Shown in pieces: positions 21,877-21,913 of a stretch of DNA of 64,000 nucleotides (positions are counted from its first letter, which is position 1; each line of letters opens with the position of its first letter). Position numbers and translations under genes: made by a program. The notes below the pieces were generated by a model. It did not search any database and was not told where the DNA came from. It saw only the letters and a list, made by a program, of their open reading frames with translations. The stretch spans positions 19,252 through 83,251 of the forward strand of contig CASFMM010000004.1 of the NCBI GenBank assembly GCA_949295765.1, in the 5' to 3' direction. The DNA comes from an uncultured Methanomassiliicoccales archaeon (lineage in GTDB: Archaea; Thermoplasmatota; Thermoplasmata; Methanomassiliicoccales; Methanomethylophilaceae).

Positions 21877-21913
21877 ATGCGCGTGTACGCGCGCGTGTAC
21901 GCGTGTATATATA
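21877..21913 (+). promoter_or_regulatory. 37-bp alternating purine-pyrimidine tract ending in the TATA-like box of gyrBA
   Basis: atgcgcgtgtacgcgcgcgtgtacgcgtgtatatata is strictly RY-alternating, contains a 12-bp tandem repeat (gcgcgtgtacgc x2) and ends 28 bp before the gyrB ATG. Confidence 0.7.

Follow-up and report, generated by a model that had tools for sequence, protein, structure and literature searches.

The window analyzed here, a stretch of 64,000 nucleotides (64 kb) from an uncultured Methanomassiliicoccales archaeon that is a gut methanogen, contains adjacent gyrB and gyrA genes that form an operon with an overlap of 8 nt (Table 1). GyrA carries a GyrA-box-like sequence, QQSRGGVG, at residue 528. 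Based on this sequence, in addition to the GyrB and GyrA reading frames themselves, we conclude that the encoded enzyme is gyrase. No other topoisomerase was detected among the 25 window ORFs that were scanned against Pfam, and an active-site motif search detected no topoisomerase IA gene in the fetched gyrB loci that are described below.

The other promoters that were read in the window have an A/T box of 5 to 9 nt that is located 29 to 36 nt before the ATG, and since the gyrB A/T box at -36 shares this spacing, we interpret it as the TATA box of the gyrBA promoter. Most close relatives have a conserved A/T box 35 to 46 nt ahead of the gyrB ATG. The distance between TATA box and transcription start in archaea, taken together with the TATA-to-ATG spacing, suggests that the gyrBA mRNA is leaderless or has a very short leader. 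The window promoters have TATA boxes at a leaderless spacing, and in this archaeal organism they do not show the bacterial determinant (the sigma-70 -10/discriminator region).

Table 1. Features of the thiC-gyrBA region, by position in the 64-kb window (a dot in the strand column denotes a feature with no strand)
Feature	Position	Strand	Basis or remark
thiC, divergent upstream neighbor	20371..21669	-	Pfam ThiC_Rad_SAM and translation; probable start MSTIME at 21669
thiC-to-tract spacer	21670..21876	.	Strain comparison; hypervariable, outside the conserved element, marks its upstream boundary
Short A/T flank TTAAT, upstream edge of tract	21874..21878	.	Similar box in many orthologues
Unbroken purine-pyrimidine alternation, 37 bp (GC-rich tract plus TATATATA box)	21877..21913	.	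Direct reading
Tandem direct repeat, GCGCGTGTACGC x2	21879..21902	+	Tandem Repeats Finder and repeat search
28-bp core with cheapest predicted B-Z transition, GCGCGTGTACGCGCGCGTGTACGCGTGT	21879..21906	.	Z-former rank 1 in window
Putative TATA box of gyrBA promoter, TATATATAA	21906..21914	+	A/T box at ATG -36
TATA-to-start-codon region	21915..21941	+	Predicted transcription start near 21933-21940
gyrB	21942..23849	+	Pfam HATPase_c, DNA_gyraseB, Toprim, DNA_gyraseB_C
gyrA	23842..26325	+	Pfam DNA_topoisoIV and six DNA_gyraseA_C repeats (blades)

The alternating tract at the gyrBA promoter

Purine-pyrimidine (R/Y) alternation is unbroken for 37 bp at the gyrBA promoter, where the sequence is ATGCGCGTGTACGCGCGCGTGTACGCGTGTATATATA. 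The original prediction, which was made from the sequence of the window alone, described this run, a 12-bp repeat that is present twice within it, and its junction with a TATA box 28 bp upstream of gyrB, and all three descriptions are accurate. Direct reading gives the same coordinates and the same length. Tandem Repeats Finder reports an array of 2.1 copies of GCGCGTGTACGC with 100% matches at positions 21879 to 21903, and the repeat search is in agreement, with two 12-mers at 21879 to 21890 and 21891 to 21902; it also finds three copies of CGCGTGTA. The TATATATA box occupies positions 21906 to 21913, which leaves a gap of 28 nt to the gyrB ATG at 21942. The tract was also predicted to cover the BRE position, and the TATA-to-ATG spacing places it, in all probability, at the BRE and in the upstream part of the gyrBA promoter, reaching to about -60. 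The element sits in the promoter of the gyrase genes, as is expected of a homeostatic gyrase promoter. It also has the composition of a Z-DNA-forming sequence (an alternating tract of at least ~12 bp that is rich in CG and CA/TG steps), with 28 bp that are almost purely CG and TG/CA steps.

No tract of similar length had been noticed elsewhere in the window, and this observation holds: the second-longest R/Y run is 16 bp, compared with 37 bp for the gyrB tract. First-order Markov simulations of 64 kb gave a mean longest run of 15.1 bp (standard deviation, 1.8; maximum, 23; n = 300), and runs of ≥37 bp are expected ~8e-8 times. The gyrB tract is far outside chance expectation. The DNA upstream of the A/T box at the other promoters read in the window is ordinary and mostly purine rich, with no alternating tract.

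Short self-complementary words were counted in a check for restriction-site avoidance, and CGCG and GCGC are slightly rarer than expected in the window (observed/expected ratios of 0.86 and 0.92, respectively).

The neighboring thiC gene has an A/T box of its own at positions 21702 to 21707, at the usual leaderless distance. A permissive cmscan of positions 21000 to 22500 detected no Rfam family in the thiC-gyrB intergenic region, including the TPP riboswitch (RF00059), and a TPP riboswitch or other known RNA in this region was rejected on the basis of that scan. The sole match was a chance hit of mir-297 on the tract (E = 0.58; 22 bits, compared with a gathering score of 90). The possibility that the tract is a thiC 5' leader or a shared bidirectional TATA element was rejected as well, based on the separate thiC A/T box and on the fact that the tract follows gyrB from one genome to another. 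Public metatranscriptome (Logan) contigs over the window are strain mixtures. At L063, the RNA contigs span thiC and gyrB without the intergenic region and define no start site, and this gap in RNA coverage is consistent with an untranscribed tract.

Conservation of the tract among species and strains

A GyrB-based scan with one genome per species gave 69 Methanomassiliicoccales loci, mostly from Methanomethylophilaceae, with GyrB proteins that are 74 to 99% identical. The scan also gave 11 outgroup loci from bacteria, Woesearchaeota, and an unclassified archaeon. One of the 69 family loci has almost no upstream DNA and was left out, and the 68 usable loci total 471 kb. The specificity of the tract for gyrB was tested on these 471 kb of orthologous neighborhoods and on the 64-kb window.

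A CG/CA-rich alternating tract is present right upstream of the gyrB A/T box in almost every usable family locus. The orthologous alternating runs are 10 to 39 bp long and are often interrupted by one or two out-of-phase bases; approximately one-third of the tracts have one or two such steps out of alternation (e.g., GCGCCCGCG and GCGCTCGCA), and no orthologous tract is pure (CG)n. By R/Y run length, which is a parameter-free measure, nearly all loci have no run in their 8 kb that is longer than the gyrB tract. When Z-Hunt-type energies are used instead, the most Z-prone segment of the locus is the gyrB-proximal tract in 67 of 68 loci, and the median critical sigma (68 loci plus the window) is 0.037, with a 5 to 95% range of 0.035 to 0.042. 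Only five segments elsewhere in the 471 kb have a critical sigma of ≤0.042. The outgroup gyrB loci of bacteria and Woesearchaeota have critical sigma values of ≥0.051 and are without such a tract. The original prediction depended on a tract being present upstream of gyrB in relatives and on similar tracts not being common elsewhere. Both expectations are borne out, the first in 67 of 68 Methanomassiliicoccales loci and the second by the small number of comparable segments (5) in 471 kb of gyrB neighborhoods.

The tract is also closely joined to the promoter. In 53 of 69 loci (the 68 usable loci and the window itself), the end of the best Z segment is ≤2 bp from the A/T box, and the alternation is carried over the junction between tract and TATA box in 51 of 63 nonredundant loci (P = 7e-7). 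The upstream edge of the tract has an A/T-rich box in many orthologues (TTATAATA and TATTATTA). This box may serve the divergent neighbor as its TATA box, or it may be a preferred site for a B-Z junction. The flanking DNA is unalignable between species. Roughly half of the loci have thiC as the upstream neighbor, whereas the rest have various other genes in either orientation, and the tract remains with gyrB whatever this neighbor is.

The sequence of the tract is much less uniform than its position. Core length ranges from 12 to 34 bp across loci, and a TATA-anchored weight matrix has no fixed-register conserved motif of the kind expected for an operator: it reaches ≤0.57 bit at any upstream position, and two alternation phases coexist. 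The step composition of the orthologous tracts is 63% CG/GC and 31% CA/TG/AC/GT, and these are the best Z-forming steps. As judged from sequences and calculated energies, it is the predicted propensity to form Z-DNA that is conserved, not the sequence, and this propensity is a gyrB-specific feature of an archaeal order.

The main rival to a Z-DNA switch is a degenerate transcription-factor site. According to this explanation, the tract would be a B-form site for a sequence-specific or repeat-recognizing protein that controls gyrBA, such as a transcription factor, an alternative TFB with an unusual extended BRE, or a chromatin protein, and Z-DNA would be uninvolved. Archaeal activators and some repressors bind between the upstream edge of the TATA box and about -60, and the position of the tract matches this zone. 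CGCACGCG/CGCGTGCG is found in 49 of 69 loci. In a phylogenetically thinned set, the 8-mer CGCACGCG is present in 28 of 38 representatives, compared with 20 ± 1.7 in unit-shuffled cores; the P value of this enrichment is about 0.002 to 0.08, with the value of 0.08 obtained for 18 representatives. The arms of inverted repeats average 5.3 bp, compared with 4.7 bp in shuffled sequences, which is a small effect (P = 0.002), and within sub-clades the tract is identical at the nucleotide level while the flanks differ (e.g., in L013, L017, and L018). However, shared ancestry and the decay of (CG)n through CpG-to-TpG changes would also be expected to produce an excess of the 8-mer and of inverted repeats. 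The dyad arms are mostly 4 to 6 bp, with no strong dyad, no motif is kept at a fixed register, and core length varies. No regulator gene is conserved beside the locus, since the neighbors vary. Furthermore, a degenerate site by itself would leave unexplained why strict R/Y alternation of variable length and register is kept, including across the TATA junction. Based on this balance of evidence, we consider it unlikely, although a serious contender, that the tract is a B-form protein site.

We also searched metagenomes for the tract-plus-TATA pattern CGYGYRCGCGYGTATATATA. Among the matches listed, gyrB was present at 0 of 80 loci, and the result is uninformative for a regulon. Most of the matches listed look like microsatellites of the form (CA)n(CG)n(TA)n, in contigs of low GC content that are probably eukaryotic, or like unrelated bacterial DNA.

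Variation between strains was analyzed in a set drawn from at least 120 GyrB matches, of which those listed are all 98 to 100% identical. In nine strains with identical GyrB, 43 of 207 sites are segregating in the spacer between thiC and the tract, compared with 2 of 29 in the tract and 0 of 36 in the TATA box and leader. The difference between the spacer and the tract, TATA box, and leader taken together (2 of 65 sites) is significant (Fisher P = 4e-4), while the tract by itself compared with the spacer gives a Fisher P value of 0.08. Ten sister strains have a wholly different spacer that is joined to the same tract precisely at its 5' edge, and other metagenome contigs skip the spacer. The tract and core promoter are constrained between strains. 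In one short contig (L099), GyrB is identical and everything upstream of -22 is replaced, TATA box and tract included; the promoter may have been swapped in nature, or the contig may be a chimera that arose in assembly.

These comparisons bear on the possibility of a simple-sequence repeat that is neutral or hypermutable and lies upstream of gyrB by coincidence, perhaps as a phase-variable contingency locus. The window tract is a 12-bp tandem duplication, and direct repeats are overrepresented in the orthologous tracts (6.4 nt, compared with 5.1 nt in unit-shuffled controls; P = 1e-7). This excess suggests that the tracts grew by slippage and were then retained by selection, so that slippage would have contributed to their origin. 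However, no variation in repeat number or length was found among 19 strain-level sequences that carry the tract, one of which has two substitutions, and the tract varies less than the adjacent spacer. Such a tract recurs at this position in 67 of 68 species and is almost absent elsewhere in the loci compared, and it therefore cannot be neutral. A contingency-locus repeat was rejected on the basis of the constant repeat number in the 19 strains, and a hypermutable repeat of any kind is hardly credible here.

The sharp upstream boundary is also relevant to the proposal that gyrase itself, or another topoisomerase, preferentially binds or cleaves the tract and would thereby autoregulate at its own promoter. 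Type II topoisomerases favor alternating purine-pyrimidine DNA, and binding to Z-DNA has been shown for eukaryotic topoisomerase II. With this preference, placement of the tract at the gyrase promoter would give direct feedback. However, the E. coli gyrase cleavage consensus contains T-G-R-Y-C, and a perfectly alternating tract cannot contain the G-then-purine step of this consensus. Gyrase also wraps about 130 bp, yet conservation ends sharply at the edge of the tract. A topoisomerase site is therefore quite improbable. The best explanation of the comparative sequence data is that the tract is a conserved, presumptive cis-regulatory part of the gyrBA core promoter.

The predicted B-Z transition and a proposed model for gyrase feedback

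The behavior of the tract under torsional stress was calculated with a simplified statistical-mechanical model that permits no more than a single Z run and a single melted run. The energy parameters are of the Ho et al. 1986/Z-Hunt and SIDD/SIBZ type. With the Z-Hunt-type energies, the tract is the top-ranked Z-former in the window, with a critical sigma of ~0.037. When the tract is placed in a 5-kb domain, the predicted probability of Z-DNA rises from 0.2 at a sigma of -0.035 to 0.95 at -0.040, and in a 2-kb domain the tract is predicted to flip between -0.040 and -0.045. The flip of the tract comes before melting or the transition of any other Z site in the domain. No melting is predicted below -0.065, and the TATA box itself would be pulled into Z-DNA only past a sigma of about -0.065. 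With low-salt parameters, the next predicted transition is melting of the gyrB TATA/initiator region. The original prediction that the tract is prone to flip under negative supercoiling is in line with this simplified model, in which the B-Z transition falls within a plausible, physiological range of negative superhelicity and ahead of its competitors.

Another non-B structure, a cruciform, was considered and rejected. The longest perfect palindrome is ACGCGCGCGT, which has 5-bp arms, and the arms in the orthologues are mostly 4 to 6 bp, which is too short.

It is conceivable that Z-DNA, or simply a stiff GC-rich block, would serve at this position as a torsional buffer that takes up the negative supercoils of divergent transcription and so uncouples two back-to-back promoters, with no feedback on gyrase. 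The divergent thiC/gyrB arrangement is the ancestral layout and is seen at roughly half of the loci; when thiC is divergent, the tract lies between two A/T boxes that are 20 to 35 bp apart. The 2-kb model also shows a buffering effect, in that the flip is predicted to hold the residual sigma near -0.03 while the imposed sigma goes from -0.045 to -0.065. In the 5-kb model, a control with a scrambled tract showed no clear change or delay in promoter melting, because weaker Z sites took over. This outcome makes a B-Z junction at the BRE/TATA edge more credible than global buffering. Moreover, the tract is not lost from gyrB where a co-oriented or unrelated gene lies upstream, or where the spacer is longer than 200 bp, as it is in the window. 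A divergent intergenic region elsewhere in the window (44378-44346) has a GC-rich palindrome without an alternating tract. A torsional buffer with no effect on gyrase synthesis is, in our estimation, improbable.

The explanation that is best supported by the sequence comparisons and the model is a B-Z switch that would provide feedback on gyrase, and we assign it a probability of roughly 0.45, somewhat short of even. The most likely mechanism would be a superhelicity-dependent B-to-Z switch that is set against the TATA box. As long as there is little unconstrained negative supercoiling, the tract would be in the B form, TBP and TFB would bind the BRE and TATA box, and gyrBA would be transcribed. 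When supercoiling passes a sigma of about -0.035 to -0.04, the tract would flip to Z-DNA. This threshold could be reached globally, or locally through the negative supercoils that arise behind RNA polymerase and from the divergent neighbor. The flip would create a B-Z junction at the BRE/TATA edge and would take up about 5 to 7 helical turns. The junction and the absorbed turns together would reduce initiation at a type of promoter that is otherwise helped by negative supercoiling, and gyrase synthesis would thus come under negative feedback. The threshold of the transition and the rank of the tract as the first transition in its domain are predicted by the model, and it is an inference that Z-DNA would form in vivo, that its effect would be repressive, and that proteins might not be required.

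The stricter form of this proposal is a protein-independent B-Z "flipon" that would by itself run supercoiling homeostasis for the archaeal gyrase. We regard this form as possible but less likely than not. Such a flipon would have arisen after archaea with promoters that are otherwise stimulated by negative supercoiling had acquired gyrase. If it is real, the tract would be the first described example in prokaryotes of a natural cis-regulatory switch that works through Z-DNA. If it is confirmed, it would mean that a horizontally acquired bacterial enzyme has been wired into archaeal, eukaryote-like transcription by DNA mechanics alone, and it would provide a natural in vivo reporter of supercoiling for archaea. 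Two questions are made testable by the tract. One is whether Z-DNA has a natural regulatory function in prokaryotes, and the other is how gyrase is regulated in gyrase-bearing archaea. The element is only about 30 bp and is conserved as a physical property. Dozens of sequence variants exist in nature, as well as one possible deletion, and tract-swap experiments should therefore be straightforward.

Relation to known supercoiling-sensitive promoters and Z-DNA elements

The known kinds of element that underlie the gyrB tract are the supercoiling-sensing promoter and the archaeal RY box. In Halobacterium salinarum, novobiocin raises the levels of gyrase and type I topoisomerase transcripts, which the authors of that study interpreted as negative feedback of the E. 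coli type (PMC3184054). This response demonstrates that homeostatic control of gyrase exists in archaea. Plasmids in gyrase-bearing archaea are negatively supercoiled, and archaeal transcription in vitro favors negatively supercoiled templates (PMC8643681). Since such templates are preferred, a gyrase promoter in these organisms needs something that inverts the usual response.

In bacterial gyrase genes, the relaxation determinant is in the -10/discriminator region, and Z-DNA is not known to be involved. The logic that we propose for the archaeal genes is shared with bacterial gyrA and gyrB, in that a cis determinant in or next to the core promoter senses superhelicity. The promoters themselves are different: those of bacterial gyrase are sigma-70 promoters, while archaeal gyrBA has a TATA/BRE promoter with a Z-prone tract of 28 to 37 bp upstream of the TATA box. 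Relaxation is described as stimulating PgyrA, the gyrA promoter of E. coli (PMC6170449), and relaxation-stimulated transcription of gyrA and gyrB in bacteria is attributed to Menzel and Gellert (1983, as cited in PMC3184054). Mycobacterial topoisomerase I genes are likewise regulated through the topology sensitivity of their own promoters (PMC4770202). For this relaxing enzyme the response is opposite, the promoters are bacterial, and Z-DNA is uninvolved.

The original prediction knew of no earlier description of such a protein-free feedback loop for archaeal gyrase. In the literature searched, we found neither Z-DNA nor an alternating tract described for a gyrase promoter or for Methanomassiliicoccales, and no natural prokaryotic Z-DNA element that is tied to a topoisomerase gene. 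The claim of novelty stands to this extent, but it is qualified by a partial precedent, the Halobacterium bop promoter. A supercoiling-sensitive alternating "RY box" reportedly lies near the bop TATA box; this box is said to be only about 11 bp, supercoiling is said to stimulate bop, and the gene is reportedly unrelated to topology control. Both the gyrB tract and, by these accounts, the bop RY box consist of alternating purines and pyrimidines at or next to an archaeal TATA box, and the R/Y tract that adjoins the gyrB TATA box has the arrangement expected of a bop-type RY box. The gyrB tract is 2 to 3 times longer than the length reported for the bop box, is GC rich, and is conserved across an order. 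The proposed direction of the effect is also different, with repression proposed for gyrB and stimulation by supercoiling reported for bop. Published work on bop ties this promoter to supercoiling and to non-B DNA (Yang et al. 1996 J Bacteriol 178:840; Baliga and DasSarma 2000).

The Z-DNA cases from E. coli are engineered inserts, whereas the gyrB tract is natural. Rahmouni and Wells are said to have used (CG)n/(TG)n inserts as in vivo probes of supercoiling in E. coli in 1989. Z-DNA at eukaryotic promoters involves nucleosomes and remodelers and is mostly activating, unlike the repression that we propose for gyrB (for examples of eukaryotic promoter Z-DNA, see PMC3664823 and PMC10474125). 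The Z-DNA "flipons" that are located upstream of active promoters nevertheless belong to the same sequence class as the gyrB tract and would obey the same physics, in which supercoils behind RNA polymerase drive the flip from B to Z.

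Naming of the gyrB product

The protein encoded at window positions 21942-23849 is 99% identical to P0093, a related GyrB protein that carries the NCBI name "DNA topoisomerase IV subunit B." Based on the six GyrA C-terminal blades and the GyrA-box-like QQSRGGVG found in the partner subunit encoded in the window, gyrase fits better than topoisomerase IV as a name.

Strain variation upstream of and across the gyrB start

The spacer between thiC and the alternating purine-pyrimidine tract (window 21670-21876) is hypervariable, with 43 of its 207 sites segregating between strains. 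It is skipped in other metagenome contigs, in which 21688 is joined to 21879, 21732 to 21867, or 21733 to 21875, and the sister strains (loci L081 to L090) have an unrelated spacer of ~100 nt.

The 2.6-kb ENA contig L099 encodes a GyrB that is 100% identical to that of the window. In this contig (L099:1-660), AT-rich DNA stands in place of the TATA box, the tract and all other sequence upstream of -22 from the gyrB ATG. The AT-rich DNA adjoins an ORF resembling the archaeal-ATPase-like neighbor of other loci, which is named by N-terminal similarity only. Either the promoter has been exchanged naturally in L099, or the contig was assembled as a chimera. A single strain contig (L100:350-410) has a 28-bp tandem duplication across the gyrB start codon, consisting of two copies of tgcgataggtcatccgatcatcatggat, which may be an assembly artifact.

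Other genes and segments of the window

Further ORFs are summarized in the table. The Lhr-type helicase is apparently split in two overlapping ORFs; the second Lhr-like gene is intact. The 2849-aa ORF encodes a giant protein, probably of the surface or adhesin-like kind.

Additional features of the window
Feature	Position	Strand	Domains or context
2849-aa ORF	152-8701		MBG_2, Big_2
Lhr-type helicase, first ORF	11564-16854 (both ORFs)		DEAD, Helicase_C
Lhr-type helicase, second ORF			DEAD_assoc, WH_Lhr, AlkZ-like glycosylase domain
ORF with HipA_C-like kinase domain (toxin-type kinase)	28923-29819		within block of short minus-strand ORFs
Second Lhr-like gene	36541-39285	minus	
ORF bordering 44409-44430 region	43911-44378	minus	
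ORF bordering 44409-44430 region	44346-45710		LarA-like

By Z-Hunt-type energies, GCGCCCGCACGTGCGCGTGC at 50159-50178 ranks second in the window for Z-proneness, with a predicted critical superhelical density of ~0.039. An A/T box lies immediately 5' of it, and 3' of it is an ORF whose product has a ribosomal L18e domain. The GC-rich segment at 44409-44430, in a divergent intergenic region, contains the perfect palindrome CGCTCGCGCGAGCG and is flanked by two A/T boxes. This two-box layout is similar to that of some gyrB tracts, although the 44409-44430 segment is non-alternating.
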